Of a DNA stretch of 64,000 bases, positions 1 to 18,274 are shown one piece after another. Position 1 is the first letter of the stretch; each line of letters opens with the position of its first letter. Under the pieces are notes generated by a model. That model was given only the letters and a program-made list of their open reading frames with translations. It was not told the origin of the DNA and made no database searches. The position numbers and the translations under genes were made by a program. Origin of the DNA: a phage; sequence record NC_101835.1; one strand, 5' to 3'.

Positions 1-13
1 TTGGAGAGAAAAA

Positions 14-874
14 GTGAAAGTTGTAAAACGGGACGGTAGAGAAGAGGTCTATAACGGAATTAAGGTGATCAAGGCGGCAGAGTCCGCCTTACTTGAGTCT
101 GGACATACTGAAGAAGAAGCTTACCGGATCGCCTGCGCGGTTAATGAAGTTGTTGCTAACAATCTACCAACCGACCAGTGCACGATCTCTGTAAAAAATA
201 TCCATATCCTTGTTGAAGACGCTCTTATGGATATGGGTTTAAAATGTGCAGCCAGAGAATACATCCAGTATAGGCAGACAAGAGATAATAACAGAGAGGC
301 AGGTGGAAAACTGCTTGCAGATATTAGTGGCTTCTTGGATCGCACTTGTGATGAATTTACAAAAGAAAACGCAAATAAGCCTACCAATCATGTACACACT
401 CATCGTGACCTGCTTGCAGGCATCCTTAGCAAACACCTTGCATCAACACAGATCCTGCCAGACCGTGTCTCAGAAGAGCACAATAGAGGCTTCATCCATG
501 TGCATGATCTTGACTACTTGATCAGTCCGTTAACAAACTGTTGTTTGGTAAATTATCCAGATATGTTGGAAAACGGATTCAATATTGGTAACGCCCATGT
601 CAGTAAGCCGAAGTCAATAGGGGTTGCAACAACAATCCTTAGCCAAATCTCTAGTGCGGTAGCTAGTGCTCAATATGGTGGTCAGACTATGAGCCATATT
701 GATCATTATCTGGCACAGTATGCTGAAGCAACCTATGAGAAGAACCTTAAATTTTGCCAGGAACATTGGTTGCCAGATGCTGAGACTGTTGCAATGCAAA
801 TGACAGATAAGGACGTGTTTGACAGCATGCAGACGTTGCTTTATCAGATCAACACACTAACCTCGGTAAACGGT
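14..874 (+). CDS. nrdD: anaerobic ribonucleoside-triphosphate reductase NrdD, exon 1
   Basis: GTG start at 14 after GGAGAG; ATP-cone-like N-terminus and class III RNR core; reading frame hits a stop right after ...LTSVNG. Confidence 0.85.
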
Positions 875-1131
875 TAACAAACTGGCCGTTTTAAAACTCT
901 GCTAACCTCAGTATGAGGGGTCAGCTGATCGCTGGCTAACGGGGAACGCTAAGGCGAAAGCTATGCCAATCCCGTGACTAGCTTCACAAGGAGTGAGGCG
1001 GTTGTAACGACTAACCTTTTGGTGTAGGGATTATGGAAGATTCCGAAACGCAGAGGTCTGATTAATAATCACACGGTGTGATTTCAGGCAAGAGATAGTC
1101 TGGCCTTGTGGAAACATAAGGGTGGGGACCG
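875..1131 (+). mobile_element. group I intron in nrdD, no ORF
   Basis: Exon 1 ends on T(874), intron ends on G(1131); exon 2 resumes in frame (NG|QTPFITLSLGLDTS); P7-like agatagtctgg near 1093. Confidence 0.6.
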
Positions 1132-1431
1132 CAAACCCCTTTTATCACATTAAGTTTAGGTCTGGACACCTCAGTATTTGGTAGAATGATTACCAAAAAC
1201 TACTTGAAAGTCCACAAAATGGGTCTTGGTGAAGAACGTATCACACCTGTGTTCCCTAAAGTGCTGTTCTTCCTAGAAGATGGTGTCAACATGAACCCTG
1301 GAGATCCTAACTATGATTTGAAACGATTAGCTCTGGAATGCTCTGCAGAGCGGATTTATCCTGACTTTGTTTCTGTTCCACTAAATCGTAAAGTGACAGG
1401 CTCGACAGATGGTAAAGTAACGAGCATGGGT
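1132..1431 (+). CDS. nrdD: NrdD, exon 2
   Basis: Colinear with class III RNR (QTPF...GLGEERITPVFPK...NPGDPNYDLKRLALECS...VTSMG); frame closes 2 codons after MG. Confidence 0.8.
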
Positions 1432-2193
1432 AAACTATAACTGCTCATGTAAAATCTATCTAAACGGGGAAACTCCAGAACGGACAATCCCGTGCTAAAC
1501 GTAACAGAACTCCTGACCAAGAGGAGTCCTGAAATGAGAAAACAAATTCGTGATTTTGAAGGTTATGAAATTGACGAGATGGGCAATGTTTATTGCACCC
1601 GCTACGAAAATGAAAGAATTATTCATTCGTGGGAAGAGATAAACACAGGTTACCGTCTTGTTAGGATACGCAAGAACAAAAAGACTGTTTGCCTAAGGGT
1701 TCACAGACTTGTTGCTGAAGCGTTCTTACCAAATCCAGACAATTTACCCTATGTTAAGCACAAAGGGGACAACAGGAAAGATAACAGTGTATACAACCTT
1801 GAGTGGGGAGCTTGCCCAGACAATACGCAAGAAGGATACAACAACAACTGTTATGCTTTTTACACAAGATGCCACGGTGTGAAAGCCACCAACAAATTAA
1901 CTGGTGAGGTTTTCCACTTTAAAAGTCTGAGATGTTGTGCTGATGTTTTAGGAGTGGATAGAAAAAGAATATCTGCTATCCTGAAACGTGGTGCGCCTAA
2001 TAACTATGATTACGAGTTCTGTTACGAAATGCCTAACGACTAACCGTGATGAATGTAGCGGTGTAGGGTGTAAGCCGATGACACTCGAAATGGTAGACAC
2101 ACTAAGTGTGAAGATATAGTCTGATCTGCATGGGAACATGCAGCAGCACGTAAAGGTGCGGGGGTGGACTTGCGAACCACCCTGAACATAATG
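1432..2193 (+). mobile_element. group I intron in nrdD carrying an HNH homing endonuclease ORF
   Basis: 5' splice site after T(1431), last nt G(2193); exon 3 resumes MG|CRSFLSKY; aagatatagtc core motif at 2111-2121 downstream of the ORF. Confidence 0.6.
1492..2043 (+). CDS. intron-encoded HNH homing endonuclease
   Basis: HNH_3-type motif VHRLVAEAF...KHKGDNRKDNSVYNLEWG; lies wholly inside intron 2; true start may be the ATG near 1534. Confidence 0.75.
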   Translation: MLNVTELLTKRSPEMRKQIRDFEGYEIDEMGNVYCTRYENERIIHSWEEINTGYRLVRIRKNKKTVCLRVHRLVAEAFLPNPDNLPYVKHKGDNRKDNSVYNLEWGACPDNTQEGYNNNCYAFYTRCHGVKATNKLTGEVFHFKSLRCCADVLGVDRKRISAILKRGAPNNYDYEFCYEMPND

Positions 2194-3171
2194 TGTAGAA
2201 GTTTCTTATCGAAATATAGCGACCCTGTAACAGGCGAGGAGAAATACCTTGGCAGATTTAACTTAGGCGTTGTTAGCATTAACCTGCCAATGATTGCGGC
2301 AAAAGCTAAAACGGAAGGTGTTGATTTCTTTGCAGTTCTTGACGAATACCTGGATCTTGCATACGAGGCTCACCTTGTAAGGGTTAATCGTCTAAAAGGG
2401 GCAAAGGCAGGGCAGAACCCTATCATGTGGTGTGAAGGCGCTCTTGCTCGCCTGGATCCTGAAGAGAGTATTGATAAACTCTTCTATGACGGGTACGCTT
2501 CCATCAGTATTGGGTATATTGGTGTGTATGAAACCTGTCAGATTTTGGGCAGAGAGGGTGACAAGGCTTTAGCTCTTGGAATCCTTCAGCACATGAGAGA
2601 TGCTTGTGAGAGATACAAGAAGGAAAGTAGACTAGCGTTTAGCTTGTACGGCACCCCTTCTGAGAGTCTATGCTATAAAGCTGCAACCTGTCTGGATCGT
2701 GAATATCCTGAAGTGTTGAAGCACGAGCATGAATATCTCACCAACAGTTTCCATCAGCCAGTATGGATCAATAGCTCTCCTTTTGATAAGTGGAAGTATG
2801 AGGAAGGTTTTGCTATGATCTCCTCTGGTGGCAACATCGGATACGTAGAGACACCAAATCTGAAAAACAACTTAGATGCTTTGGAAGCTCTTGTTGATTT
2901 CGGATATAAACACATTATGTATTTTGGTATCAACCAGCCTGTGGATAAATGTCTTAAGTGTGGTTTCTCTGGTGAGTTCAGTGCAACAGCTAAAGGGTTC
3001 TGCTGCCCTGCGTGCGGATGCCACGATGAACAATATATCTCAGTGATCCGAAGAGTGTCTGGCTATCTCTCCAGCCCGAACAGTAGACCGTATAACACAG
3101 GTAAACAAGCAGAGGTTATCGAACGTGTTAAACATGTTGGGAATGTAGACTGGTGTCCGTTGAGTAAATAA
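2194..3171 (+). CDS. nrdD: NrdD, exon 3 (glycyl-radical domain)
   Basis: GRFNLGVVSINLP, C-terminal zinc ribbon CLKCG...CPACGC, glycyl radical motif RRVSGYL. Confidence 0.85.
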   Translation, partial: CRSFLSKYSDPVTGEEKYLGRFNLGVVSINLPMIAAKAKTEGVDFFAVLDEYLDLAYEAHLVRVNRLKGAKAGQNPIMWCEGALARLDPEESIDKLFYDGYASISIGYIGVYETCQILGREGDKALALGILQHMRDACERYKKESRLAFSLYGTPSESLCYKAATCLDREYPEVLKHEHEYLTNSFHQPVWINSSPFDKWKYEEGFAMISSGGNIGYVETPNLKNNLDALEALVDFGYKHIMYFGINQPVDKCLKCGFSGEFSATAKGFCCPACGCHDEQYISVIRRVSGYLSSPNSRPYNTGKQAEVIERVKHVGNVDWCPLSK

Positions 3172-3280
3172 GGAAAGAGATTGAGAGCAAGGATGCTCTC
3201 ATTTTTGTTTTTATTGACTTCTATTCCTCTTTTCTATAGTATGCAATATAAAGTGAATAGCGGAAGGGTCTGGTCTGGTA

Positions 3281-4213
3281 ATGAGGAGACTAACAACCGA
3301 AGAGTTTATAGAAAAAGCTCAGACTATACATGGTGACAAATATGATTACTTCAAAGTGGAGTATAAAAACAACAAGACACCTGTGTGTATAATTTGTCCT
3401 GAGCACGGTGAGTTCTGGCAAACCCCTGTGGCACATGCTTTCAAGAAGCATGGTTGTCCAAGGTGTGGTGGGTCAGCGAAAAAGAACACTGAAGAGTTCA
3501 TAAAAGAGGCTATGGTTGTTCATGGGGACAAGTACGATTACTCATTAGTCAAATATGCGAACATGAGAACGCCTGTAAAAATTGTTTGCCCTGAACACGG
3601 TGTGTTTGAACAATACCCTGAAAACCACTTATACCAAAGAAACGGCTGCCCAGAGTGCTATGACTTAAGACGTGGGCAAAGTCAAGCGTTAACCCATAAG
3701 GAGCATGCTGCAATTATCCACAAAGCCAACCCAGACATAGAAATATTAGAGAAAATTGCCAATGATAACACAAAAGTGCAATGTAGGTGCAAAATTTGTG
3801 GGTATAAGTGGTCTGCTAAACCTAATAACCTAAAAAGTGGTCGTGGCTGCTGTAAATGCGCACAAAATGGATTCTTATCTCATGAGTACGGTAAACTCTA
3901 CATTATGGTTGATGACTTAGAAGTGCCAACACTTATGAAAATCGGTGTATGCGTTAAAATGCACAGGAGGAAAAATGAGGTGCTTAACAGTGCTCGTAAA
4001 TCTGGCGCAGGTGTCCACACTCTTCACGTAGTAAAAACGTGGAGCGGATCAACTCAAAACATGGTAGACTTAGAAAAATCTGTGCATAAGGCCTTCAGCA
4101 AGTATAAAATAAACTTTCCTGTAAAATTTGACGGTAGCACTGAGTTTTTCTACTACAGGCCTGAAGTGTTTGACACGGTAGAAGAGGTATACAAGAAGAT
4201 TTGTGGTAAATGA
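3281..4213 (+). CDS. T5orf172 (GIY-YIG superfamily)-like endonuclease with three N-terminal zinc-ribbon repeats
   Basis: Three repeats HGDKYDY..V.Y.N..TPV.I.CP.HG.F.Q.P..H...GCP.C; C-terminal LYIMVDD..KIGV...GSTEFF resembles T5orf172. Confidence 0.5.
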   Translation: MRRLTTEEFIEKAQTIHGDKYDYFKVEYKNNKTPVCIICPEHGEFWQTPVAHAFKKHGCPRCGGSAKKNTEEFIKEAMVVHGDKYDYSLVKYANMRTPVKIVCPEHGVFEQYPENHLYQRNGCPECYDLRRGQSQALTHKEHAAIIHKANPDIEILEKIANDNTKVQCRCKICGYKWSAKPNNLKSGRGCCKCAQNGFLSHEYGKLYIMVDDLEVPTLMKIGVCVKMHRRKNEVLNSARKSGAGVHTLHVVKTWSGSTQNMVDLEKSVHKAFSKYKINFPVKFDGSTEFFYYRPEVFDTVEEVYKKICGK

Positions 4214-4265
4214 TCGTAGAAAGATACACATATCTTAAACATGCTATAAACTAAGGAGGTACAGT

Positions 4266-4382
4266 ATGTCTACAGGTATTTATAAAATTTGCAAGTGCGG
4301 CTGTAGTTGCAATCTTCGTTGGTGCAAGGCACTAGACGATTTTATCTGGCATTGCCCTAAATGTGATGCGGAGTATCTATGA
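4266..4382 (+). CDS. small Cys-rich zinc-ribbon protein (38 aa)
   Basis: AGGAGG RBS; CKCGCSC...HCPKC; stop overlaps the nrdG start (ATGA). Confidence 0.4.
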   Translation: MSTGIYKICKCGCSCNLRWCKALDDFIWHCPKCDAEYL

Positions 4383-4852
4383 ACATTGTCGGATACACAG
4401 AAATATCTTACACCGAAGGGCCAGGTATTAGAACTGCCTTGTGGGTATCTGGGTGCCCACACGCTTGCCCTGGTTGCTTTAATCAGGCATTTTGGTCAAA
4501 AGATAAGGGGAGGGAGTTCACTGAAGAAGACTTGCAAAAAATCTTGTCAGATTTAGATAACCCGTCTGTGTGCGGTATCTCTCTGCTGGGTGGAGAACCC
4601 TTAGCATACTATAATGAGCCAGATATTATTAGCCTGATGGAGAAAATTAAGGAAAAATTTGGTGACAAGAAAACTATTCTTGTATATACTGGGTTCACAT
4701 TTGACCATATCTCTAGTAATGTTCTTAAACTGGCTGATATCATCATTGACGGTAAGTATGTAAAAGATTTACCAACCAAGAAACCGTTCCGAGGTAGCGA
4801 TAACCAAAGAATGTTTAAAAAAGTAGCAGGCGGTTGGGTCCAGGTAGACTAG
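4379..4852 (+). CDS. nrdG: anaerobic RNR activating protein NrdG (radical SAM)
   Basis: GPGIRTALWVSGCPHACPGCFN and GISLLGGEP motifs typical of NrdG. Confidence 0.9.
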   Translation: MNIVGYTEISYTEGPGIRTALWVSGCPHACPGCFNQAFWSKDKGREFTEEDLQKILSDLDNPSVCGISLLGGEPLAYYNEPDIISLMEKIKEKFGDKKTILVYTGFTFDHISSNVLKLADIIIDGKYVKDLPTKKPFRGSDNQRMFKKVAGGWVQVD

Positions 4853-4855
4853 TTG

Positions 4856-4885
4856 TTGACAAAGCTTTGTTTAGATAGGTATAAT
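4856..4885 (+). promoter_or_regulatory. sigma70-like promoter (TTGACA-18-TATAAT)
   Basis: TTGACA at 4856-4861, TATAAT at 4880-4885. Confidence 0.6.
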
Positions 4886-4916
4886 TATCGTAAAATGAAA
4901 GCAGAGGAGGTGCCAA

Positions 4917-5030
4917 ATGGCTAAAAAAGCCTTGAAGAAGGCGTACAAGAAAGAGATTGCGCTTGAGCTTAAGAAAAAACACAAGCGTGAAAAGAAACAT
5001 CATGAAGATGAAGAGGGGGTGCAACAGTGA
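4917..5030 (+). CDS. small basic protein (37 aa)
   Basis: GAGGAGG RBS; MAKKALKKAYKK...; stop overlaps the next GTG start. Confidence 0.4.
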   Translation: MAKKALKKAYKKEIALELKKKHKREKKHHEDEEGVQQ

Positions 5031-5377
5031 CACAAGAACGTATCGATTTGGCTAATAAGTTTGTAGATCTCATTTTGCCACGGTTAGTTACTCAACATGC
5101 AGATGCTATTTCTACTAATCTTGATGGCTTACGTCTAATGCTGAATCGCACAGATGACCCTCGTATTCGGGCTGATTTAGAAGCCTCTGCCAACAAACTG
5201 GAAAAGTTCTTGCAAGTAGGTACGCAAGAAGCCTTACACAAGATTATGGTGGAAGGTTTCTCTAAAGAATTTACCATTAAAGAGCTTAAGGAGCTGATCC
5301 ACCAAGAAGAGATGAATATCCGAGTTCAGGCTGTTGCAAGCAGCATGGAAGCGGCTATTGAAAAACTGTTGCAGTAA
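5027..5377 (+). CDS. hypothetical protein
   Basis: Track ORF, GTG start coupled to upstream ORF. Confidence 0.5.
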   Translation: MTQERIDLANKFVDLILPRLVTQHADAISTNLDGLRLMLNRTDDPRIRADLEASANKLEKFLQVGTQEALHKIMVEGFSKEFTIKELKELIHQEEMNIRVQAVASSMEAAIEKLLQ

Positions 5378-5415
5378 AAGTTCCAGACACATCTCAATCT
5401 GAAAGGAGTCCCAAC

Positions 5416-6210
5416 ATGGGTCGAGCTAAAGAAACAAAACGCATGCGTGATGAAGCTAAAGAGGCTCGCAAATCTGATCGCCTGCGTAAAGCTGCTGAGA
5501 AATTTGCTGAAGAACGAGAGCACACAGCTCCAGCTCTCCGACCGATGAATAAAAAACAAGAGTATTATCTCCACCTTCTTAAAACTAAACAGTTAGTGAT
5601 CGCAACAGGGCTGTTTGGCACAGGCAAGTCGTTTATGGCTGCAGCTTATGCTGCAGACCTGCTTCGTAAGAACGAGATTGATAGAATTATTGTTTGCCGC
5701 CCAAATGTTGAATGTGGAAGCCATGGCACGGGGTTCAAACCTGGAGGTGTATTACAGAAAAACGAACCTTTCTTAAAATCAATTTTAGAAACTCTCAAAA
5801 AACGACTCGGACCTGGTGCTTATAGTACGTTATTGGGAGACGGTCAGACTGGGCGCATCGAGGTGCAAGAGGTTGCAACAATCCGAGGTCGAGATTTCTC
5901 TGATCGTTGCATCATCCTAGTTGATGAGTTTCAGTTGACAACCTGTGCAGAGGCTTTGGCAATTGCCACACGGCTTGGTGAGCATGCACAAATGATTTGC
6001 ATGGGAGACTTACGACAGAACGATCTCAAAGGCACCTCAGGACTTCAGTGGCTGATCGACTTTGTAACGAGGCACGAAATCAACGGTGTTGGTATCGTAG
6101 ATTTTGACGAGCCAGAAGATGTGGTTCGCTCAGGTATTGGTAGACTGTTTGCACTAGGCCTTATGACTGACCGTAATAAAGGTGTGTGGACCCCTGAGGC
6201 AGGTTTATAA
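5416..6210 (+). CDS. phoH: PhoH-like ATPase
   Basis: P-loop ATGLFGTGKSF, Walker B ILVDEFQ; PhoH-like architecture. Confidence 0.8.
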   Translation: MGRAKETKRMRDEAKEARKSDRLRKAAEKFAEEREHTAPALRPMNKKQEYYLHLLKTKQLVIATGLFGTGKSFMAAAYAADLLRKNEIDRIIVCRPNVECGSHGTGFKPGGVLQKNEPFLKSILETLKKRLGPGAYSTLLGDGQTGRIEVQEVATIRGRDFSDRCIILVDEFQLTTCAEALAIATRLGEHAQMICMGDLRQNDLKGTSGLQWLIDFVTRHEINGVGIVDFDEPEDVVRSGIGRLFALGLMTDRNKGVWTPEAGL

Positions 6211-6251
6211 TATATAGGAGAGAGGGTGATATTATTCACCCTCTATTTAAG

Positions 6252-7181
6252 ATGCGTTTAGGAGAACAGTTATCACGAGAAGAAGTGTTTATCAAGAAAG
6301 CTACTGATAAGCATGGTGACAAGTATGATTACTCCAAAGTTGTATACAAAAACAACACAACACCTGTGAATATAGTGTGCAACAAGTGTGGTACAGTTTT
6401 TAGTAAAACTCCTAAGTCTCACCTTATAGGCGCAGGATGCCCAGATTGTAAGAACAGGGAGTTAAGTGAGAGATTCCGAATGTCTAAGGAGGAGTTTGTA
6501 AAAAGGGCAACAGAACTGCACAAGGGGAAGTATGACTACTCTCTTGTAAAAAGTTTTTCTAACAGGAACGACACTGTTACTATTATTTGCCCCATCCACG
6601 GAGAGTTCAAGCAGACAGTTGCAAATCATTTAGCTGGTGGGTGCTACAAGTGTGGAAAAAGAGCGACAGCTAAAAAGATGAGGAAGTCTAAAGATAGATT
6701 CATAGAGGATGCTACTCAACTACACGGAGACATATATGACTATTCAGAAGTGAAGTATGTGAATACCCACACTCCTGTAACCATTATCTGCAAGTCTTGC
6801 GGGTGTAAGTTTCTTCAACAGCCTGCAAACCACCTGTGCGGTAACGGTTGCCCAGAATGCTCTACTTCAGGATTCAGGCAGAGTACTAAAGAGAGCTGTC
6901 TGTACCTTCTTGTTGATGATCTTACCATTCCCACGGTTATAAAAGTTGGGGTGACTATCAATCTACAGAGCAGACTATACAACATAAGAAGGAACACAAA
7001 TTTTCCTGTTCACGTGCTTAAAGTATTTACTTTCGAGCAGGGGTGTGCTACCATGCAGCTTGAAAAATTGGTGCATAAAGTCTTTGCAGATCGCAACTGC
7101 CACTTCGAAGGTTTCGACGGGGCAACGGAGTGGTTCTGGTACTCTCATGATATTGTAGAGTTTCTAGAAGACAATTGTTGA
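6252..7181 (+). CDS. T5orf172-like endonuclease with three zinc-ribbon repeats (paralog of 3281-4213)
   Basis: Same triple HGDKYDYS...CP.HG...GCP.C repeat; C-terminal LYLLVDD..KVGV...GATEWFWY. Confidence 0.5.
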   Translation: MRLGEQLSREEVFIKKATDKHGDKYDYSKVVYKNNTTPVNIVCNKCGTVFSKTPKSHLIGAGCPDCKNRELSERFRMSKEEFVKRATELHKGKYDYSLVKSFSNRNDTVTIICPIHGEFKQTVANHLAGGCYKCGKRATAKKMRKSKDRFIEDATQLHGDIYDYSEVKYVNTHTPVTIICKSCGCKFLQQPANHLCGNGCPECSTSGFRQSTKESCLYLLVDDLTIPTVIKVGVTINLQSRLYNIRRNTNFPVHVLKVFTFEQGCATMQLEKLVHKVFADRNCHFEGFDGATEWFWYSHDIVEFLEDNC

Positions 7182-7206
7182 CAAACAGATAAGCTTTAGG
7201 TATTAT
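7178..7206 (+). promoter_or_regulatory. sigma70-like promoter (TTGACA-17-TATTAT)
   Basis: Resembles the 4856 promoter (GTTGACAAA ... AGGTAT.ATTATCG). Confidence 0.55.
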
Positions 7207-7236
7207 TATCGGACAAAACAAGGAGAAGGAGATAGT

Positions 7237-7548
7237 ATGGCTACAATACAAGAGAGACTGAATAAAATATACTGCCTGTTTGTCTATAACGGCGAGACAA
7301 TTTTGGCAAATAAAGGATCCAAGAATGTGTGGATCAAGGACAGTGGTGGTAATATAATCAACTTAGCGTTGCTACGTGAGCGCCGACACAGATTCTTTAT
7401 CGAGTCTCGGATTATTGAAAGCAGCACCTGCTACAGAACAGGCGATAAAGTAATTGTTGACAATGATACGTGGTATGTGGTAGACTGGCAATCATTGAGC
7501 TGTGATGCTTCTGACAATCGTAAGTATTCCCTAGTGATTGCTAAATAA
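7237..7548 (+). CDS. hypothetical protein
   Basis: Track ORF downstream of promoter with GGAGAAGGAG RBS. Confidence 0.55.
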   Translation: MATIQERLNKIYCLFVYNGETILANKGSKNVWIKDSGGNIINLALLRERRHRFFIESRIIESSTCYRTGDKVIVDNDTWYVVDWQSLSCDASDNRKYSLVIAK

Positions 7549-7608
7549 AGGTAAATGTGAATCAGTTTTAAATAAATAGCTTTCAACTTCCAATATTAAG
7601 GATTTCTC

Positions 7609-8658
7609 ATGAATTTAACACCTCGCAGCACCATGGTACACGGCATGAAAGAAAAACAGAACGGTTTCGAACCTATGAGTAATAAAATGTTTGGTATGCC
7701 GGGTGGTATTATGGAAACATACAGCTACCCAACACCTGTTGTTGACCACGTTCTTTATATCGACGATTTGGAAGACTTACAAGATCATATGTCTCGTCTG
7801 CAGACGATCCGTATGGCTCAGCCAGAAGAAAGTATCCGTGTAATCATTAACAGTCCTGGTGGTTGCGTTCACATTGCTATGGCGTATTTGCAGGCATTCC
7901 GCGAGTCTCAGGCAAGCGTTGTTGCACATGCTGAAGGGATGTGCTGCTCTGCTGGAACAATCTTATGGCTTGGTTGTAAAGAACGTACTGTGGCTCCGGA
8001 CACAGAGTTTATGTTCCACTACTATCAAGGTGGCACTTATGGTAACGGTGTGAACATGAATACTCAGGTCAGCTACTGGAAAAAACGTTTTGAACGCCTG
8101 ATCGAAAAATACTACGGTGGGGTGCTGACAGAAGATGAGATCGCATCCATCACAGCTGGTGGCGAAGTGTGGTTGGACGGAGAAGAGCTGGCAGCACGCA
8201 CTGGAGCTATTATTCTGGATGAAGGCAACATACAACGCATCCAGAACGGACAAAAACCGAAAAAGCTTCTGGCAAAAGGTGATGAAGAAGGCGTGTTAGG
8301 TGAAGCAGGTCTTCCGGAGATTCACCAGTGCACATCTTTAGATGAGTTAGTTCATGCTGTTGAATCTGCAAAAGCGGGTGGTTCGAAAGGTGATGTTCAC
8401 ACTGTGTTCCTGAATCTGCAGATGGAAAGTGGCGAGACCGTCAGAATTGCCCTGAGTGAGATTACTTCAGAAGATCTGCAGAGATTCTCTGTCGTTGAAC
8501 TTCAGGATATTCTGTCTCAATTGAAGACTACTCTGAACGGCGGTGAAGAGGTTAAGGTGAAAGATAAGACTCGCAAGCGTCTGGTGGACAATATTATTAA
8601 AACAGCAAAAGAGCTCAATGAAAAAATCCTGGGTGCAGGAATTGTCGAAGAAGCTTAA
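7609..8658 (+). CDS. ClpP-like serine protease with long C-terminal extension
   Basis: INSPGGCVHIAMAY...AEGMCCSAGT resembles the ClpP/S14 core. Confidence 0.55.
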   Translation: MNLTPRSTMVHGMKEKQNGFEPMSNKMFGMPGGIMETYSYPTPVVDHVLYIDDLEDLQDHMSRLQTIRMAQPEESIRVIINSPGGCVHIAMAYLQAFRESQASVVAHAEGMCCSAGTILWLGCKERTVAPDTEFMFHYYQGGTYGNGVNMNTQVSYWKKRFERLIEKYYGGVLTEDEIASITAGGEVWLDGEELAARTGAIILDEGNIQRIQNGQKPKKLLAKGDEEGVLGEAGLPEIHQCTSLDELVHAVESAKAGGSKGDVHTVFLNLQMESGETVRIALSEITSEDLQRFSVVELQDILSQLKTTLNGGEEVKVKDKTRKRLVDNIIKTAKELNEKILGAGIVEEA

Positions 8659-8670
8659 ACATTAATTCTA

Positions 8671-8695
8671 AAGCCCTCTTCGGAGGGCTTTTATG
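8671..8695 (+). terminator. rho-independent terminator
   Basis: AGCCCTC-ttcg-GAGGGCT hairpin followed by TTTTAT. Confidence 0.65.
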
Positions 8696-8709
8696 ATCTG
8701 GAGATTTGC

Positions 8710-9243
8710 ATGACTTGTGCTAGAAAACCTGATGAACAACGTAACGCCTACGATGAGTATGTGACACCGGAGTGGTGTGCAGAAGGGCTGTATGACCTTA
8801 TTCCGTTCCCAGAAGACTGGACCTACTTAGAGCCTTGCAGGAATAGTGCCTCAGGTGTGTTCTACTCCCGTATGCCGTTAGGATCTGCATGGGGAGAAAT
8901 ACAAGAAGGTGTTGACTATCTGAATACAGAATACAACCATGTTGACTGTATTATCACCAACCCACCATACAGCCTGGCTCGTGAGTTTGTAGACAAGGCG
9001 TTGAAAGATGCTGACGTAGTTATTATGCTTTTGCGTCTTAATTTTCTGGAAAGCAAAGCCAGATTTGAATGGTGGCTTGATAATGCACCTACTACTGTGA
9101 TCACAATATCTAAGCGTCCATCATTTCAATCAAACGGCAGAACTGACGGGCAAGCATATGCGTATTTTGTGTGGGATAAGAAAAACCGTTTAGACTTGCC
9201 GCCGTTTATGTGGTTGGCACCCCCAGAGGTAGACCTGAAATGA
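8710..9243 (+). CDS. DNA N6-adenine methyltransferase (small phage Dam-like)
   Basis: Catalytic IITNPPYS motif; about 177 aa. Confidence 0.6.
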   Translation: MTCARKPDEQRNAYDEYVTPEWCAEGLYDLIPFPEDWTYLEPCRNSASGVFYSRMPLGSAWGEIQEGVDYLNTEYNHVDCIITNPPYSLAREFVDKALKDADVVIMLLRLNFLESKARFEWWLDNAPTTVITISKRPSFQSNGRTDGQAYAYFVWDKKNRLDLPPFMWLAPPEVDLK

Positions 9244-9524
9244 AAATGAGTGCTAAGGACAAATTACACCAGCTAGCGCTAAAACGCCCTGTAACGCTCC
9301 CTGACGAGCTTAACTCCATTTATGATGCGATTGTAGGGGAGATACAAAATAAAGCGTTAGCAGGCTTTCTGGGGTGCGGATTTTCGATAAATCTACCCTC
9401 GCATCTCTCAGATTACTTCCCGCACATTGTTGGAGATTTAAGGGCAGGAGGTCTGCAGGTAGATGTTGTTGGCATCTCCCCAGAGAAAAATAATACGGTT
9501 GCCTACTTGACAGTAACCTGGTAG
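9240..9524 (+). CDS. hypothetical protein
   Basis: In-frame ATG at 9240 overlaps upstream stop (ATGA); track ORF starts 9210. Confidence 0.5.
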   Translation: MKMSAKDKLHQLALKRPVTLPDELNSIYDAIVGEIQNKALAGFLGCGFSINLPSHLSDYFPHIVGDLRAGGLQVDVVGISPEKNNTVAYLTVTW

Positions 9525-9800
9525 TTGTGTATTGTTGTTTTCAACAAGAGGGGGTCATTTATGTACAAGTCATTTTCAATCTACTCAAGACAGGCGAAAC
9601 ACTACACAGAGATCCTGATCACTCAGAAAAAATCTGTGGAAGGTGAGTGGGAATATCACCATAAAATGTTGCGTCCAGACTGGGTTTTTGATAGACTTAT
9701 TGCTATGATCCCTCTCGGAGAAGTATACCCTCTGACAGCCCATCGCGATGCTTGGGATTTAATTGATTACATAGATTCATTTAAGGAGCCTAGATTATGA
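9525..9800 (+). CDS. hypothetical protein
   Basis: Track ORF; real start may be the internal ATG near 9561. Confidence 0.45.
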   Translation: MCIVVFNKRGSFMYKSFSIYSRQAKHYTEILITQKKSVEGEWEYHHKMLRPDWVFDRLIAMIPLGEVYPLTAHRDAWDLIDYIDSFKEPRL

Positions 9801-10195
9801 AGATTGAGATTACTAAAGAAGGTAAGAAAGTGTCCGGCAACTATGCAACAGTAATTCGGGATTTAATGTTTGAAGCCACCAAGATCGGTACATCTAAAGT
9901 TGGTCAAACTGTTAGTGTGAAAAGTAATATCTCCACAGGAGAGAAGGTATTCATTGTGGTCAAAGGGCAGGATCCCGTGGAAGGAACAGTGGGCCGAGGT
10001 GGCTACCTGTGCATTTCTGAAGAGCCGCGTATGTTAGTGGCTGACGCTACTATGGGTGGGAAACGTGTGTGCGAGGCGGATGAGGTAATGATTATCCAAC
10101 CTGTTGATCCAGATGACCCAGCAACTTGGGTGGTAGGAAATGAAATCTTCTCTTTAGAAGAGTTATCCTTCCCAGCACCGCGCTCTGTTCAGTAA
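9797..10195 (+). CDS. hypothetical protein
   Basis: Track ORF, start overlaps upstream stop. Confidence 0.5.
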   Translation: MKIEITKEGKKVSGNYATVIRDLMFEATKIGTSKVGQTVSVKSNISTGEKVFIVVKGQDPVEGTVGRGGYLCISEEPRMLVADATMGGKRVCEADEVMIIQPVDPDDPATWVVGNEIFSLEELSFPAPRSVQ

Positions 10196-10232
10196 TAATT
10201 TATCTTACCAGGGACGGTAGGTAGGAGGTAGC

Positions 10233-10466
10233 ATGAAAGTTAAATTTCTTACAGATTTAGGGTACCCTTCCTTGGTTGACTGTGTTGGTAAAATTGTGGA
10301 AGCAAAACGGCTATCTGCAAACGAGAATGTTGTCCTGGTTAAAGGGAAGGATTTACTAGCTGCAGGTGCAGAGTCTGGCAGGATCTCTCCTGATTATATG
10401 TATTACCTATCTTTAAGTAATCTGCCAGAGCGAGGCGGTAAAGGCCTTGAAGTTGTGGAGGAGTGA
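10233..10466 (+). CDS. small acidic protein, MKVK...VEVVEE family
   Basis: MKVKFL N-terminus, VKGKDLLAAGA core, C-terminal LEVVEE; paralog of 13792 and 14009. Confidence 0.55.
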   Translation: MKVKFLTDLGYPSLVDCVGKIVEAKRLSANENVVLVKGKDLLAAGAESGRISPDYMYYLSLSNLPERGGKGLEVVEE

Positions 10467-10996
10467 CAGGTATGCTTCTGATTAACTGGGAAGACCTCTA
10501 TGGGGACAAAGACCCTGTTGCGTTTGTTGATCGTAGGTGGAGATACACTGAAGAACAACTGGCGGCAAAAAATTTAACTGCAAAACGCAGAAAGATCATC
10601 CAGTGCAAGTACAAATACGCACAGTTTGCTGCAAAAGTGTCTCCACAAATCGAGAGCTTTGTGCTTAAATTGTATGACGAGTACCTCAAATTCAAATTGG
10701 ATTTTGTGCAGGTGTACCGTGCACAGGTACGACCAGATACCAACATATGTAGATGGAAGGTTGTTTGTGAAGGTAAAGATTTGCCGCTCAGCTTGACAAT
10801 TGAGTGGCGTTATGGGTATCATGAGTGTGGTCTGTATGATATTTGGGATGTCATTGTAGATCCTGCTAAGCATCTGAACACAGAGGAGCTGGAATATATC
10901 AATAAGGTTATTCTCGATATGTTTTTCAGCTACACACATGAAAACTCTGAGAAAGAACGGGATAATTTTCTTGACACCCTCAGCGACCATTTGTAG
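10463..10996 (+). CDS. hypothetical protein
   Basis: Track ORF, overlaps upstream stop. Confidence 0.5.
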   Translation: MTGMLLINWEDLYGDKDPVAFVDRRWRYTEEQLAAKNLTAKRRKIIQCKYKYAQFAAKVSPQIESFVLKLYDEYLKFKLDFVQVYRAQVRPDTNICRWKVVCEGKDLPLSLTIEWRYGYHECGLYDIWDVIVDPAKHLNTEELEYINKVILDMFFSYTHENSEKERDNFLDTLSDHL

Positions 10997-10999
10997 TAT
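10971..10999 (+). promoter_or_regulatory. sigma70-like promoter (TTGACA-17-TAGTAT)
   Basis: Consensus -35 with a reasonable -10, upstream of the 11027 gene. Confidence 0.45.
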
Positions 11000-11026
11000 A
11001 CAATTTAACCTACAAAGGGAGGACCA

Positions 11027-11254
11027 ATGAGTATAAATGTTGTGCTAATAGGTTACCTGGTAATGTCCGTTATAACAGCGGTATTCTTGACAGGTGTATG
11101 CATCGTGTCCAGACGAAGGGTGAAGTTTGATGATTTTATCACCATCATCACTGCTGCACCTTTTTGGCCTGTTGTTATCTTCATCGTAATAATGTGCCTA
11201 GTTGATTACTACAAGAATATCAGGAAGGAGAGTAGGGATGGAGACCGCACCTAA
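11027..11254 (+). CDS. small membrane protein (2 TM)
   Basis: GGGAGG RBS; two hydrophobic helices. Confidence 0.55.
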   Translation: MSINVVLIGYLVMSVITAVFLTGVCIVSRRRVKFDDFITIITAAPFWPVVIFIVIMCLVDYYKNIRKESRDGDRT

Positions 11255-11390
11255 AACTATCTATACTGTTCTTAAAGAGATTGCGTTCTACGCAGATCTT
11301 AGCCAGGCACCTTTATGGGAAAAGAGCATGTATTTAAAATGGTGCGTTAATTTAGGGAGACCTTCCAGTGTTTCAAGCCATGTTTATTGA
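11238..11390 (+). CDS. hypothetical protein
   Basis: ATG at 11238 with GGAAGGAG RBS; track ORF 11202-11390. Confidence 0.4.
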   Translation: METAPKTIYTVLKEIAFYADLSQAPLWEKSMYLKWCVNLGRPSSVSSHVY

Positions 11391-11487
11391 GATGCTATCT
11401 GGGATATTGTTACTGGTAGCCATCTTAGGTGGTGCAGTTCTGATGTATAACTATCTTGAAAAAGGAGACAGCAATGGTAAAAAATAA
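11380..11487 (+). CDS. small hydrophobic peptide (35 aa)
   Basis: MFIEMLSGILLLVAILGGAVLMYNYLEKGDSNGKK; below track cut-off. Confidence 0.3.
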   Translation: MFIEMLSGILLLVAILGGAVLMYNYLEKGDSNGKK

Positions 11488-11659
11488 ATCTTTAGAGCAG
11501 GCTGAAAACCTTCTCCACGAGCTGGTAAAGGAGTGGAAAGTTGAATACTCAGATTTTAATGCACGAGAGGGTGAAGATTATTGGCCTACGGAGCGCTCAG
11601 AGGGCGAATGGTATCAAGATTTTATAGAGTGGTTATATCAGACGTGCGATGAGGGGTGA
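11474..11659 (+). CDS. hypothetical acidic protein
   Basis: ATG at 11474 after AAGGAG; track ORF 11456-11659. Confidence 0.5.
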   Translation: MVKNKSLEQAENLLHELVKEWKVEYSDFNAREGEDYWPTERSEGEWYQDFIEWLYQTCDEG

Positions 11660-12126
11660 CGATGTTTGTTAAATATGTAAAAACGTGCCTCAACAGTCTT
11701 GGCAGAGAGCATTGGTACACCTTGCTTGAAAAAGGGGAAATTTTAACAAAATCTGGAAAGATAACTTTGATACCTCTTGATAGTAAAGGTAAAGACCCGT
11801 CACGACTTGTTATAGATGATTACGTTACAGGTGTGACGTTCGAGGTCTCTGTGGAGAGGTTAATACGCAGAGCTGGCGGCCCTTATGACCGAAGAGAGTA
11901 TGTTTTCGATTCCGTTACAGAGATGGGGGAGCATCCGTCTTTAATGTTCAGGATGGTAATCAGAGATATGAGGTCATCTATAGATAGGATCGTAAAGGAC
12001 ATTAAGGAACCTTTTAGAGTAAAAGTTAAGAAGTTTTTCGATTCTAAGATTAACATACTCGCCGTTGCACTAGGTGTAGTTCAACTTCTGTTAATTTTGC
12101 ACTATTTTGAACTGCTATTTAAGTAG
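11656..12126 (+). CDS. hypothetical protein with C-terminal TM helix
   Basis: Track ORF; hydrophobic C-terminus. Confidence 0.5.
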   Translation: MTMFVKYVKTCLNSLGREHWYTLLEKGEILTKSGKITLIPLDSKGKDPSRLVIDDYVTGVTFEVSVERLIRRAGGPYDRREYVFDSVTEMGEHPSLMFRMVIRDMRSSIDRIVKDIKEPFRVKVKKFFDSKINILAVALGVVQLLLILHYFELLFK

Positions 12127-12188
12127 TAGTTGAGATATGGCACAAAGGATGTGCCATAGTGAAATAAACTAAGAAAGAGGTAGAGAGA

Positions 12189-12536
12189 ATGCCAAAGATT
12201 AAAACGTTATTACTGTGGGTAGCTGTTTTAGCTTTTATAGGGTACTGGACTTGGGAAACTGAATTAAAAGATATCGGATATACCAGTCTTGAGAGCAAGG
12301 CGTGCATTGGCATAACCGATGCGTTCAGGCAAAATGCTATGGATCACGAATGTGTTGATGCAGATATAGATGAGAAACTGTCTAAGGACAAAGATTTTTA
12401 CCATGGGCATGCTTTACTTGATAGTGGTGACACTGTAGAGTTCTGGTCGTGGTTTCGTGAAGATGGAACAATAAAAACAGCAGTAAAGATCTCTAACAAA
12501 GAGTTAATGCTGTTGCAGCAAAAGGAGGCTCAATGA
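12189..12536 (+). CDS. membrane-anchored protein
   Basis: N-terminal signal-anchor (LLLWVAVLAFIGYW); RBS AAGAAAGAGG. Confidence 0.55.
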   Translation: MPKIKTLLLWVAVLAFIGYWTWETELKDIGYTSLESKACIGITDAFRQNAMDHECVDADIDEKLSKDKDFYHGHALLDSGDTVEFWSWFREDGTIKTAVKISNKELMLLQQKEAQ

Positions 12537-12820
12537 TCTGGATATCCTATGCTGATGGCACCATGCTGTATACTGCAGGTACCAGATATGAAGTTCAGGA
12601 GAACGATAAAAAATTTATCGTAAAAACATTTGACAAGGACGACAACCTTTTGCTAGAATTGACTTACAAAGTTGGAGAGGTATCCAATATCCAGTTGGAT
12701 TGTGGTCATAAAGATAATCCACTCAAAAAACCTGGAGTAGGTAAGGCTTCAGAAGAACGTCTGTCTCGTATTGCAGAAAGCGTTTCTCCCCAAAAATCTA
12801 AGAAGAGGACTAGAAAATGA
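12533..12820 (+). CDS. hypothetical protein
   Basis: Track ORF, coupled to neighbours. Confidence 0.5.
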   Translation: MIWISYADGTMLYTAGTRYEVQENDKKFIVKTFDKDDNLLLELTYKVGEVSNIQLDCGHKDNPLKKPGVGKASEERLSRIAESVSPQKSKKRTRK

Positions 12821-13011
12821 AAAACTTACGTTTTAACACTTATTACTACAACACATTGAATGATTTGTATTATATTGTTCGAAGTAAAAGTCCTGAAACA
12901 GTCCTATTCTGCCGCGAACCTTTCAAAGGGGAGGAAGTAGAGTCTGAGATGAATGTTAGCCAGATCACCTCTTTGTTGCTCTCAGGCGCAATGGAAGAAG
13001 CAATATTCTAA
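12817..13011 (+). CDS. hypothetical protein
   Basis: Track ORF, coupled to neighbours. Confidence 0.45.
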   Translation: MKNLRFNTYYYNTLNDLYYIVRSKSPETVLFCREPFKGEEVESEMNVSQITSLLLSGAMEEAIF

Positions 13012-13029
13012 ACCAGGCAGGAGGGTTTT

Positions 13030-13218
13030 ATGAAGCACTATTGCCTGTCTGGTAGAATGGGTGCAGATTGTGATTGGGTTTTCTTAAAACTTGTCAGCAT
13101 TCGAGAGTTCATCCCAGAGGAAGAGCAAGAAAGCGAGCTGATGTCATGGATCAACCATTACGGTAACACTTTTCGGCATGTTAAGGTAGAAGAGTTGCCA
13201 AGCGAGGCTGAATTATGA
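13030..13218 (+). CDS. hypothetical protein
   Basis: Track ORF. Confidence 0.45.
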   Translation: MKHYCLSGRMGADCDWVFLKLVSIREFIPEEEQESELMSWINHYGNTFRHVKVEELPSEAEL

Positions 13219-13511
13219 AACTTTTTGAGTGGTTTAAAAAGTTTAAATATAAAGCTGTAGCCATCGTGCCGTGGTCCATTCAGTGGGTTGATGAAGGTGG
13301 TCTACCGATACCTGGTGACAAAGATACTGGGTACTGGATTATGATGGAGAACGGGTTTGGAAAGCGAAAGTATACGTGCACAAACTCTACTCGATCTGCA
13401 CTTAATAGAGTGCCTGGTTACAAACTTATGGTTGTGTGGAAAATGTCAGGCGTGCCTCCAGCCAATGCTCAATTTCTTACTGACAATCCGACCACGGTAG
13501 AGGGAGATTGA
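13215..13511 (+). CDS. hypothetical protein
   Basis: Track ORF, ATGA overlap with upstream gene. Confidence 0.5.
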   Translation: MKLFEWFKKFKYKAVAIVPWSIQWVDEGGLPIPGDKDTGYWIMMENGFGKRKYTCTNSTRSALNRVPGYKLMVVWKMSGVPPANAQFLTDNPTTVEGD

Positions 13512-13795
13512 TAATGAAAAAGATTAACAGTAGTGAAGTAGAGTTTAAACTTGTCGGAAAAGGCACTTACTGGGAAGTTCGTCAAAAGGTATATTTGTTC
13601 GGTCTTATTCCCTACTGGTCTAAATTCTACTGGGGAGCTAACGAGTTGGGAAGATACGCCACCAAATCAATGGCACTTATTGGTATAGCAGAGTACATTG
13701 CAGCCCGAGACAGGGTTGGAACCACTTATTACTACACTGCTGACGATATTCGTAACAGTGTTTACGTCCCACAACCACCTGATGGAGACCGTTGA
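13508..13795 (+). CDS. hypothetical protein
   Basis: Track ORF, overlaps neighbours. Confidence 0.5.
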   Translation: MIMKKINSSEVEFKLVGKGTYWEVRQKVYLFGLIPYWSKFYWGANELGRYATKSMALIGIAEYIAARDRVGTTYYYTADDIRNSVYVPQPPDGDR

Positions 13796-14019
13796 TGAAA
13801 GTTAAAGTTTTAGATTCAAGCTTCTATATTGGTCAGGAGCCTTTAGTAGGAAAAGTGTTTACTGCTGTCCCTAACGAAGATTACCCTGACCTTTTAAAAA
13901 TAAAAGGAGCAGATCTTATTGCCGCTGGTGCATCTCAAGAATGCTTTGACAGTCAGTGGACCTATAACTTTGCCCTAGGTGAGGATGTAGAGGTAGTGGA
14001 GGACGATCATGAAGGTTAA
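13792..14019 (+). CDS. small acidic protein, MKVK...VEVVE family
   Basis: MMKVKVLDS...IKGADLIAAGA...GEDVEVVED. Confidence 0.55.
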   Translation: MMKVKVLDSSFYIGQEPLVGKVFTAVPNEDYPDLLKIKGADLIAAGASQECFDSQWTYNFALGEDVEVVEDDHEG

Positions 14020-14263
14020 AATTCTTGATTCTAACGTCTACTTGGGACAATCCTTCCTGAATGGAAAGGTCGTTCCTGCGGTATACTTTGAAGGGTTGCC
14101 GTGGGATGATCCTGTGCGGCAACATCACAGTTATGTAGGCCACAACGTGGTGTTTATCTTGGGATCAGACCTGATCACCGCTGGTGCACCTGAATATTAT
14201 TTCGGGGAAGAGTCCTACTATGCCTTTGGGGTAGGGTCAGATGCAGATATTGTAGAGCTGTGA
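14009..14263 (+). CDS. small acidic protein, MKVK family
   Basis: MKVKILDS...GSDLITAGA...SDADIVEL. Confidence 0.55.
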   Translation: MKVKILDSNVYLGQSFLNGKVVPAVYFEGLPWDDPVRQHHSYVGHNVVFILGSDLITAGAPEYYFGEESYYAFGVGSDADIVEL

Positions 14264-14275
14264 TGGGTAACCGTT

Positions 14276-14674
14276 GTGAAAAATAAACTGTTTAAAGTTA
14301 CAATGAAAATTCGCGGGGCTTGGAGCGTAAAGCAAGGGCGTATTCCAGAATTTGAGAAAGACTTCTACGTAGTCTCCACCTCGGAGGAGGCTGCATGCTG
14401 GCAGGCTGGCTATGCCTATGCAAGAACCTGGTACGAAGGATACCAGACTGGGGGCTATGACGGAGAAATTATCAGCAAGGGTGTAGAAGAAATTAATGTG
14501 TTGACAAGTGAAAAAGTTTTTGTTATAGTGCATCCAGATTCCAGAGTGAAGCATTACTGGAATGCCAGAACAAAAACTTGGACACCGTTTGCAGATTCTG
14601 CTACGCCACTTTTAAACCAGAAAGCTCTTGACTCTGCCCCAAGTTATGGGGTTGTTGAAGAAAAGCTAAACTGA
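14276..14674 (+). CDS. hypothetical protein (paralog of 16486-16881)
   Basis: Shared motif V.HP.S...YW.....WTP with the 16486 ORF. Confidence 0.55.
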   Translation: MKNKLFKVTMKIRGAWSVKQGRIPEFEKDFYVVSTSEEAACWQAGYAYARTWYEGYQTGGYDGEIISKGVEEINVLTSEKVFVIVHPDSRVKHYWNARTKTWTPFADSATPLLNQKALDSAPSYGVVEEKLN

Positions 14675-14691
14675 AACAGTGAGGTGTCACC

Positions 14692-14982
14692 ATGATGGAT
14701 TTAATTCTAAATATTGATAACGCAGGAGAGTTTAAAGACGATGGTGTAACAAGCATGGACAAACCCTGCTCTGCTAAGGTTGACTCAAAATGGACCTACA
14801 AGTTTGACGGAGAGATCTTCGCAAATGATGAGAAGGTTGTAGATGCTGCAGCCATTTTAAACGCTCTAGGGTACGACCCTGTGAATTCTTTGATCAAGGA
14901 TCCTGTTGAGTTTGCAGAGTATGTTCGAAAAATGGCAGATCTTGCTGTGGATATTTTAAAAACTATCGACAACAAGCTGTAA
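14692..14982 (+). CDS. hypothetical acidic protein
   Basis: Track ORF. Confidence 0.5.
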   Translation: MMDLILNIDNAGEFKDDGVTSMDKPCSAKVDSKWTYKFDGEIFANDEKVVDAAAILNALGYDPVNSLIKDPVEFAEYVRKMADLAVDILKTIDNKL

Positions 14983-14988
14983 AAACTG

Positions 14989-15017
14989 TTGACACAACGC
15001 TTCAGATTTAGTATCAT
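14989..15017 (+). promoter_or_regulatory. sigma70-like promoter (TTGACA-17-TATCAT)
   Basis: Upstream of the HPF gene. Confidence 0.5.
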
Positions 15018-15066
15018 TGTTTTCAAAGAGAGATAGTTATTCCCTCTTCCTTAAAAGGAACACGTT

Positions 15067-15387
15067 ATGCAAATTGAAATCACTGGCAACAATGTAGAAA
15101 TCACAGAAGGTATGGTATCTTTTATTTCCCGCAAAATGTCCAAGCTGGAGCGTTTACATCCCTCTGTTAACTATGCACGTGTGAGTGTAAAAGTTGAAAA
15201 TGATCACCAGGAAGTTATGGCGTTCATTTTTGACAATTCTGGAAAAGAAGTTATTGCCAAGGCTAAAGGCAGTGATGCTTACGAGGCAACTGACCGTATG
15301 GTAGATGTTGCAGCACGTCAGCTGGCTAAATGCGGTGGAAAGAAAGGTAAGGGGAAAGGCAAAGTAAAGATTGACTTTGGAGAATGA
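15067..15387 (+). CDS. hpf: ribosome hibernation promoting factor (HPF/RaiA family)
   Basis: MQIEITGNNVEITEGM...KLER...V.VKVE closely parallels E. coli HPF N-terminus as I recall it; Lys/Gly-rich tail. Confidence 0.8.
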   Translation: MQIEITGNNVEITEGMVSFISRKMSKLERLHPSVNYARVSVKVENDHQEVMAFIFDNSGKEVIAKAKGSDAYEATDRMVDVAARQLAKCGGKKGKGKGKVKIDFGE

Positions 15388-15396
15388 GGTGCTACA

Positions 15397-15498
15397 ATGG
15401 GTGTGATTAAGAAATTAGTCCCAAATGTAGAGATTGCATGCTTTGAAATTATGTTTGCAATCGCAGTTGTAGTTAATGTGTTAGGTTACGGCTATTAA
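15397..15498 (+). CDS. small hydrophobic peptide (33 aa)
   Basis: MGVIKKLVPNVEIACFEIMFAIAVVVNVLGYGY; below track cut-off. Confidence 0.3.
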   Translation: MGVIKKLVPNVEIACFEIMFAIAVVVNVLGYGY

Positions 15499-15524
15499 TA
15501 TCAAATAATTGAGGAGACCTCTAA

Positions 15525-15794: not shown

Positions 15795-15885
15795 TCCTGC
15801 TTGGATTAGCATACTTCCTCGCTAAGGAAGATTTGTAATTATTTGTGGGAAAGGAGTCCCAATCTCTTACCAGAGGTGATACTAT

Positions 15886-16149: not shown

Positions 16150-16153
16150 TAAT

Positions 16154-18265: not shown

Positions 18266-18274
18266 GGTGCTTGT

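Follow-up and report, generated by a model that had tools for sequence, protein, structure and literature searches.

The 64,000-nt stretch of phage DNA considered here (sequence record NC_101835.1, called the window at its full length) belongs to a Vequintavirus, an rV5-like E. coli myophage with a genome of ~137 kb that has hundreds of relatives at 93-99% identity. Near its left end, two open reading frames (ORFs) on the + strand, ORF1 and ORF2, lie on either side of a segment with nrdG and phoH, where a first-pass annotation of the window had placed a pair of T5orf172-type endonuclease-like genes; their coordinates, strand and position around nrdG-phoH were confirmed. From their domain content, patchy distribution and replaced flanks, we consider it quite probable that ORF1 and ORF2 are free-standing homing endonuclease genes (HEGs), independent of each other, whose products belong to the GIY-YIG superfamily and, within it, to the T5orf172 branch. 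Over positions 1-8700, the gene order on the + strand is nrdD, ORF1, a 39-aa ORF, nrdG, a phrog_7650 ORF, phoH, ORF2, a 103-aa ORF and a ClpP-like protease, with the following coordinates:

14-3171, + strand: nrdD, in pieces
3281-4213, + strand: ORF1, 310 aa
4266-4382, + strand: 39-aa Cys-rich ORF
4379-4852, + strand: nrdG
5027-5377, + strand: phrog_7650 ORF
5416-6210, + strand: phoH
6252-7181, + strand: ORF2, 309 aa
4266-6210, + strand: the genes between ORF1 and ORF2 (39-aa ORF, nrdG, phrog_7650 ORF and phoH)

Domain structure of the two proteins

ORF1 and ORF2 share homology along their entire length (38% identity and E 1e-56 by BLASTP), and to that extent are paralogs, as had been proposed; the relationship is only a distant one, with nuclease domains that are ~35% identical. 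This low identity between the nuclease domains indicates that the two genes do not stem from a recent duplication, and a recent tandem or dispersed duplication was rejected on both the overall (38%) and the nuclease-domain (35%) values. A third copy was sought by tblastn in the 64-kb window and was not found.

In both proteins, Pfam places the zinc modules DUF723, DUF4379 and CapR-homology in the N-terminal two-thirds and T5orf172 (PF10544) at the C-terminus. For ORF1 the matches are DUF723 (E 2e-13), CapR-homology (6.6e-10), DUF4379 (7.3e-10) and T5orf172 (8.6e-8), and for ORF2 they are DUF4379 (5.1e-10), T5orf172 (2.8e-9), MUG113 (4.6e-8) and DUF723 (6.7e-6). With 33.0 bits for ORF1 and 37.8 bits for ORF2 against a cut-off of 20, both belong to the T5orf172 family, as the first-pass annotation had suggested from motifs; the MUG113 match of ORF2 is likewise above its cut-off (34.0 against 22.3 bits), and the matches to the zinc modules also exceed theirs. 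PHROG 681, labeled 'endonuclease', is matched by both (E 4e-65 and 6e-67 for ORF1 and ORF2, respectively), and a search of NCBIfam gave no match. The domains are distributed as follows:

ORF1 repeat 1, aa 1-66, 3281-3478, + strand: zinc-ribbon
ORF1 repeat 2, aa 67-134, 3479-3682, + strand: zinc-ribbon
ORF1 repeat 3, aa 135-196, 3683-3868, + strand: CapR/DUF4379 subtype
ORF1 nuclease, aa 197-310, 3869-4210, + strand: T5orf172/GIY-YIG-fold domain
ORF2 repeat 1, aa 4-74, 6261-6473, + strand: zinc-ribbon
ORF2 repeat 2, aa 75-142, 6474-6677, + strand: zinc-ribbon
ORF2 repeat 3, aa 143-206, 6678-6869, + strand: zinc-ribbon
ORF2 nuclease, aa 207-309, 6870-7178, + strand: T5orf172/MUG113 domain

Each protein had been described as carrying three repeats of about 50 aa of the HGDKYDYS type. 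The six repeats and a conserved core of ~50 aa stand, but the repeat period is 62-71 aa and the HGDKYDYS type accounts for five of the six. The exception, repeat 3 of ORF1 (NPDIEILEKI...CRCKICGYKW...GCCKC), is CapR/DUF4379-like, has no HGDKYDYS motif and shares 28% identity with repeat 1. The pattern C-x2-(H/C) ... G-C-x2-C is invariant in all six aligned repeats, which identifies them as zinc-finger repeats. Consistent with this, the best Foldseek match is a DUF4379 protein (6yxx_E2, E 2.4e-4), and a PDB sequence search with the full-length profile returned DUF4379 zinc-ribbon proteins only. The repeat module is widespread, with more than 7000 matching proteins and a variable copy number, and in some of these it is fused to other nuclease types, such as the Vsr-like PF04480. 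The temperate coliphage mEp021 also encodes a related zinc-ribbon protein, in its replication module.

The C-terminal domain is predicted to adopt the GIY-YIG alpha/beta fold: AlphaFold2 models of ORF1 reach a pLDDT of 88.5 for the full length and of 95.1, with a pTM of 0.86, for the C-terminal 114 residues. Across 20 full-length homologs, the residues Y207, D211, K220, G222, R230, K252, E265, H269, G285, E288 and F290 (ORF1 numbering) are invariant, giving the pattern LYI ... KIG ... R ... G-x-x-E-F, and the LYI...KIG motif remarked on at first sight is thus conserved throughout the alignment (Y207, K220). Both copies in the window are intact and retain every family-invariant residue. The first Tyr, the Arg of helix 1 and the Glu are compatible with the catalytic set of GIY-YIG enzymes, and R230 and E288 are located in the expected secondary-structure elements.

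Distribution and flanking sequences

Occurrence was counted in a phage collection, where the ORF1 allele or ORF2 was scored as present if a match covered at least 80% of the query. The ORF1 allele reaches this threshold in 18 of the 137 records with a match and ORF2 in 6 of its 120, and no record appears on both lists. Most phages have an empty site of ~75-100 bp. AlexBoehm lacks both genes, phiWec191 has ORF2 and no ORF1, CM1 has ORF1 and no ORF2, and SophiaRose has ORF2 together with a different gene at the ORF1 site, encoding a 386-aa 'GIY-YIG nuclease family protein'. Such presence/absence polymorphism at the same locus among near-identical relatives is characteristic of free-standing HEGs. 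The likeness to these elements noted in the first-pass annotation is therefore supported by the patchy presence of the genes and, as set out below, by replaced flanks, local near-identity around ORF2 and decayed copies. Six records from different localities carry ORF2 at 98% identity or more, and the 90% cluster to which ORF2 belongs comprises 54 sequences. Near-identical genes are publicly labeled 'putative GIY-YIG nuclease family protein' (SophiaRose_123), 'phage T5, ORF172 domain containing protein' (I29_104) or 'DUF723 domain-containing protein'.

The ORF1 site shows the following features:

3061-3171, + strand: ORF1-linked variant of the nrdD 3' end, from codon comparison and alignments
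3132-4253, + strand: ORF1 cassette as an insertion, 1122 bp against 76 bp in AlexBoehm
3182-3211, + strand: terminator-like hairpin after nrdD, 8-bp stem and T-run (-14.7 kcal/mol, z -3.7)
3214-3242, + strand: weak sigma-70-like promoter match upstream of ORF1, TTGACT-17-TAGTAT, 9/12, a consensus match only

Compared with the HEG-less AlexBoehm, nrdD 3061-3135 carries 17 synonymous codon changes and one non-synonymous change. The recoded tract, in which 17 of ~25 codons are synonymously changed, starts directly after the RVSGY glycyl-radical motif of NrdD, and the C-terminus of the protein reads VGNVDWCPLSK in the window and YGSCGC in HEG-less phages. Downstream, the hairpin at 3182-3211 stands in place of the GCCACAAGGATGTGGC hairpin of HEG-less phages. 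The ORF1 carrier CM1 is 99-100% identical to the window over 3001-4200 and 92-95% identical on both sides, and JEP1 has only the left part of the synonymous nrdD tract in common with the window, indicating that the tract is mosaic. The length of the T-run after the nrdD hairpin (~3201-3211) differs by up to 9 nt among ORF1 carriers.

In SophiaRose, WalterGehring and JEP1, other alleles occupy the ORF1 site, inserted directly after the resident terminator hairpin; that of WalterGehring is labeled 'putative homing endonuclease'. These differences in insertion, together with the partial tract of JEP1, mark the spot as a recombination hot spot that was invaded more than once. The order of repeat types in the arrays is A-A-B in the window and WalterGehring, A-B-A in JEP1 and A-A-A-A in SophiaRose, and the nuclease domains of the alleles are 57-72% identical. 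Two of the eight ORF1 copies examined are broken, that of CM1 by a +1 frameshift with loss of the Glu-bearing end of the nuclease domain and that of PMBT16 by the loss of 11 bp close to its start.

At the ORF2 site, the features are:

4520-8426 (3.9 kb): near-identity block with other ORF2 carriers, one mismatch to phiWec191 and two to SophiaRose
5553-6210, + strand: divergent part of phoH (codons ~47-264) with the entire PhoH ATPase domain, in ORF2 carriers only
6216-6254, + strand: AGGAG (6216-6220), 9-bp hairpin (6221-6244), 7 nt and the ORF2 ATG (6252) (-17.1 kcal/mol, z -3.7)
7178-7206, + strand: promoter of the downstream gene, TTGACA-17-TATTAT, 11/12, kept in HEG-less phages

Here, AlexBoehm has 683 bp in place of window positions 5553-7162. 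The first ~46 codons of phoH are 97% identical to those of AlexBoehm, and from 5553 onward protein identity is ~55%. By tblastn, this segment is 100% identical in six ORF2 carriers and at most 52.6% identical in 2607 other phage records; its Walker A (GTGKS) and DEFQ motifs are intact. The ORF2 cassette with the divergent phoH is almost unchanged in at least six Vequintaviruses. Outside the near-identity block, the window diverges from phiWec191 by 4.5% over 4298-4519 and by 1.65% over 8413-21827, and its nearest relatives switch from AlexBoehm-type phages (4254-4520) to ORF2 carriers (from 4520 on). The right junction of the ORF2 block is exact, with the TGA stop of ORF2 (7179-7181) falling inside the -35 hexamer TTGACA (7178-7183) of the downstream promoter. 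Altered or co-converted flanks are thus found as the recoded nrdD 3' end, the replaced phoH domain and the 4520-8426 block.

Proposed homing and its alternatives

For both proteins we infer DNA binding, cleavage and homing, as well as the position of the targets, immunity and current activity. The array of three zinc-ribbon modules would recognize an extended, asymmetric stretch of DNA in the HEG-less allele, which for ORF1 would lie at the 3' end of nrdD or in the spacer between nrdD and nrdG and for ORF2 in phoH or the spacer downstream of it, and the tethered GIY-YIG-fold domain would cut close by. In mixed infections, repair of the broken HEG-less genome would use the HEG-carrying genome as template and copy in the nuclease gene with its neighboring markers. 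The carrier would be immune because its flanking sequence differs, by the recoded nrdD 3' end in the case of ORF1 and by the ~52%-identical phoH domain in the case of ORF2.

Expression of both genes is probably low, as judged from the sequence, since ORF1 comes after a terminator and is preceded by no more than a weak promoter match, and ORF2 follows the terminator-like structure of phoH, the 6221-6244 hairpin, with no Shine-Dalgarno sequence adjoining its start. The AGGAG lies just 5' of this hairpin, so that the folded stem would place it 7 nt from the ORF2 ATG; speculatively, a ribosome-binding site bridged in this way might tie the translation of ORF2 to transcripts that read through the phoH terminator.

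Several observations weigh against the interpretation as homing endonuclease genes. The first Tyr of the GIY-YIG motif is present (LYI, Y207), but the second is an invariant Lys (KIG, K220); this agrees with the LYI...KIG form given as typical of T5orf172 in the first-pass annotation, and alternative residues do occur at core GIY-YIG motif positions (PMC8263062). A PDB search with the nuclease-domain profile gave no match, and an hhalign comparison with the I-TevI catalytic domain gave a probability of 0.2, which is not significant and was not used for residue mapping. As sequence methods do not reach the solved GIY-YIG enzymes, the putative equivalence of R230 and E288 to R27 and E75 of I-TevI rests on the fold and on published work (PMC8263062). 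The right edge of the ORF2 block is soft, with five mismatches over 8427-10200, and part of the block could therefore stem from close kinship and not from co-conversion. ORF2 has neither a Shine-Dalgarno sequence adjoining its ATG nor a promoter of its own. Finally, a donor lineage of ORF2 and its phoH allele was sought in IMG/VR, in a 5.8-billion-protein search and by tblastn and was not found: IMG/VR yielded nothing above 46% identity and the protein search nothing between ~46% (best full-length) or 52% (partial) and 99%, the next full-length homolog of ORF2 outside its own cluster being ~46% identical.

Both genes could, alternatively, be inactive relics, their patchiness being the outcome of ordinary homologous recombination and of deletions among Vequintaviruses that co-infect, and not of homing. 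This would agree with the mosaicism of Vequintaviruses throughout their genomes (91-98% identity block by block), the two disrupted ORF1 copies and the lack of an obvious ribosome-binding site for ORF2. Nevertheless, we regard it as unlikely, since the window copies are intact in their family-invariant residues, ORF2 is highly conserved across the six records and the 54-sequence cluster, and the recombination breakpoints coincide with ORF1 and ORF2. Moreover, each of the five insertions longer than 500 bp that the 64-kb window shows when compared with AlexBoehm codes for a nuclease, which general recombination does not predict.

The proteins might also be domesticated HEG derivatives that serve the phage and do not spread themselves, acting as CapR-like sequence-specific repressors or as Odn-like anti-competitor or anti-satellite nucleases. 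Co-option of T5orf172 and zinc-finger modules has been documented, E. coli phages included (PMC8263062; Barth, Dunham & Seed 2023, PMC10448857), ORF1 matches the CapR-homology domain, and ORF2 has a weak PADLOC candidate match (PDC-S57, E 1.4e-4). Such a role is improbable, however, as most relatives have neither gene, the frameshifted copies speak against a useful phage function, and the putative catalytic residues are kept, unlike in a pure repressor; in addition, Pfam detects no RepA_N or other target-mimicking domain and the genes lie exactly at the start of the replaced flanking sequence. Identity as a defense system was rejected, PADLOC having given only the weak PDC-S57 match for ORF2.

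That ORF1 and ORF2 form the ends of an 'HEG island' moving nrdG-phoH as one cargo block is highly improbable and was rejected on the distribution: although ~2 kb of conserved genes are bracketed and islands of such design have been proposed (PMC10448857), the two genes are not inherited jointly as one block, with no phage-collection record carrying both, relatedness switches at ~4520 between them, and their nuclease domains are only ~35% identical.

Under the preferred reading of two independent HEGs, ORF2 may also drive replacement of a conserved phage gene by a very distant functional phoH allele, with the imported phoH acting as the immunity allele. We put this forward tentatively and consider it rather doubtful; if true, a T5orf172 HEG would be a vehicle for heterologous gene exchange across a large evolutionary distance.

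Known systems and other inserts in the window

To our knowledge, DNA cleavage has been proved biochemically for only one close relative, Odn. In this origin-directed protein (ICP1 Gp88), as in ORF1 and ORF2, the T5orf172 nuclease domain contains a conserved Arg and a conserved Glu. Odn cleaves DNA in vitro; the E180A substitution, in the Glu aligned with the catalytic Glu of I-TevI, inactivates it (PMC8263062). Unlike the window proteins, Odn has a RepA_N DNA-binding domain and targets the origin of a satellite, whereas ORF1 and ORF2 have zinc-ribbon arrays and the population pattern of selfish elements. The PLE satellite capsid repressor CapR (PMC8096241) shares with them a zinc-finger DNA-binding module, seen in the CapR-homology match of ORF1, but is a domesticated repressor, while ORF1 and ORF2 keep a complete nuclease domain.

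The closest parallel in architecture is with the T5orf172 HEGs of the vibriophage ICP1, of T5-like and of other phages, which also combine an N-terminal zinc-finger array with a C-terminal T5orf172 domain (PMC10448857). Among 229 such HEGs, 87% have CapR, DUF723 or DUF4379/4397 zinc fingers, and they are described as carrying repetitive, shuffled arrays, adjoining ribonucleotide-reductase and other essential genes and marking boundaries of genetic exchange (PMC10448857). ORF1 and ORF2 resemble them in their position beside ribonucleotide-reductase and conserved genes, in the reshuffled arrays and in their location at exchange boundaries. They differ in host lineage, as the parts of that survey drawn on here do not list Vequintavirus as a lineage rich in T5orf172, and in that ORF2 has no full-length homolog above ~46% outside its own cluster. 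The Vequintavirinae are known for their many HNH and LAGLIDADG HEGs, the only kinds reported in the study of this group drawn on here (PMC7344957).

Like the T4 Seg proteins and I-TevI, ORF1 and ORF2 appear modular, with the nuclease tethered to a DNA-binding part, and are inserted between genes beside conserved neighbors, with co-converted flanking markers and polymorphic flanks that would protect the carrier. In contrast to these enzymes, the order of the domains is reversed, the nuclease being C-terminal, binding is predicted to occur via zinc-ribbon repeats and not NUMOD or helix-turn-helix modules, the YIG tyrosine is a lysine and sequence similarity is undetectable.

ORF1 and ORF2 are of an already described type and an ordinary example of homing-endonuclease traffic, which leaves the current understanding of homing endonucleases unchanged; only one feature is mildly unusual, namely that an allele with ~52% identity has replaced the phoH ATPase domain in linkage with ORF2. 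With them, a well-sampled genus of E. coli phages joins the lineages with moving T5orf172 zinc-finger homing endonucleases. The filled, empty, decayed and alternative-array states are all represented among culturable phages, several of them in the BASEL collection, which makes the genus convenient for measuring T5orf172 homing, target recognition by zinc-ribbon arrays and the length of co-conversion tracts. For annotation, the genes should be labeled putative T5orf172/GIY-YIG homing endonucleases instead of 'hypothetical' or 'DUF723' proteins.

Among the neighboring genes, the 39-aa Cys-rich ORF (4266-4382, MSTGIYKICKCGCSCNLRWCKALDDFIWHCPKCDAEYL) overlaps the start of nrdG and has no Pfam match. 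It is kept in HEG-less and HEG-carrying phages alike and is an NTP-reductase fragment according to some records. In relatives, a further ORF of ~37 aa is annotated between nrdG and the equivalent of the ORF at 5027.

The nrdD gene is split twice by group-I-intron-like inserts, at 865-1121 and 1432-2201. The first contains no ORF, matches Rfam RF00028 with 30.1 bits, under the gathering score, and is not found in phiWec191. The second carries an ORF for an HNH/NUMOD-like endonuclease (1492-2043) and an RF00028 match of 35.3 bits at 2038-2143; it is missing from AlexBoehm, SophiaRose and CM1, and the window and phiWec191 are 99-100% identical across it.

Farther along the window, a 613-bp insertion relative to AlexBoehm (37999-38577, - strand) codes for a protein of 192 aa that has a CxxC...CxxC motif in its N-terminal part. 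This protein matches PHROG 1035, 'endonuclease VII' (E 6e-33), lacks a Pfam match and is probably the product of another free-standing endonuclease gene. A second insertion relative to AlexBoehm, of 753 bp (46053-46787, - strand), lies between the genes for DNA polymerase and primase/helicase; its product, 244 aa long with HNH_3 and AP2 domains, is a typical HNH-AP2 homing endonuclease. Conversely, the polymerase gene of AlexBoehm has a 643-bp insert, at ~43499-43567, that is missing from the window.

Some 20 GenBank records of the MG0656xx series (e.g., L007, L010), titled 'UNVERIFIED: Campylobacter phage' with C. jejuni as host, are Vequintavirus genomes 97-100% identical to the window, and these host labels are probably wrong.

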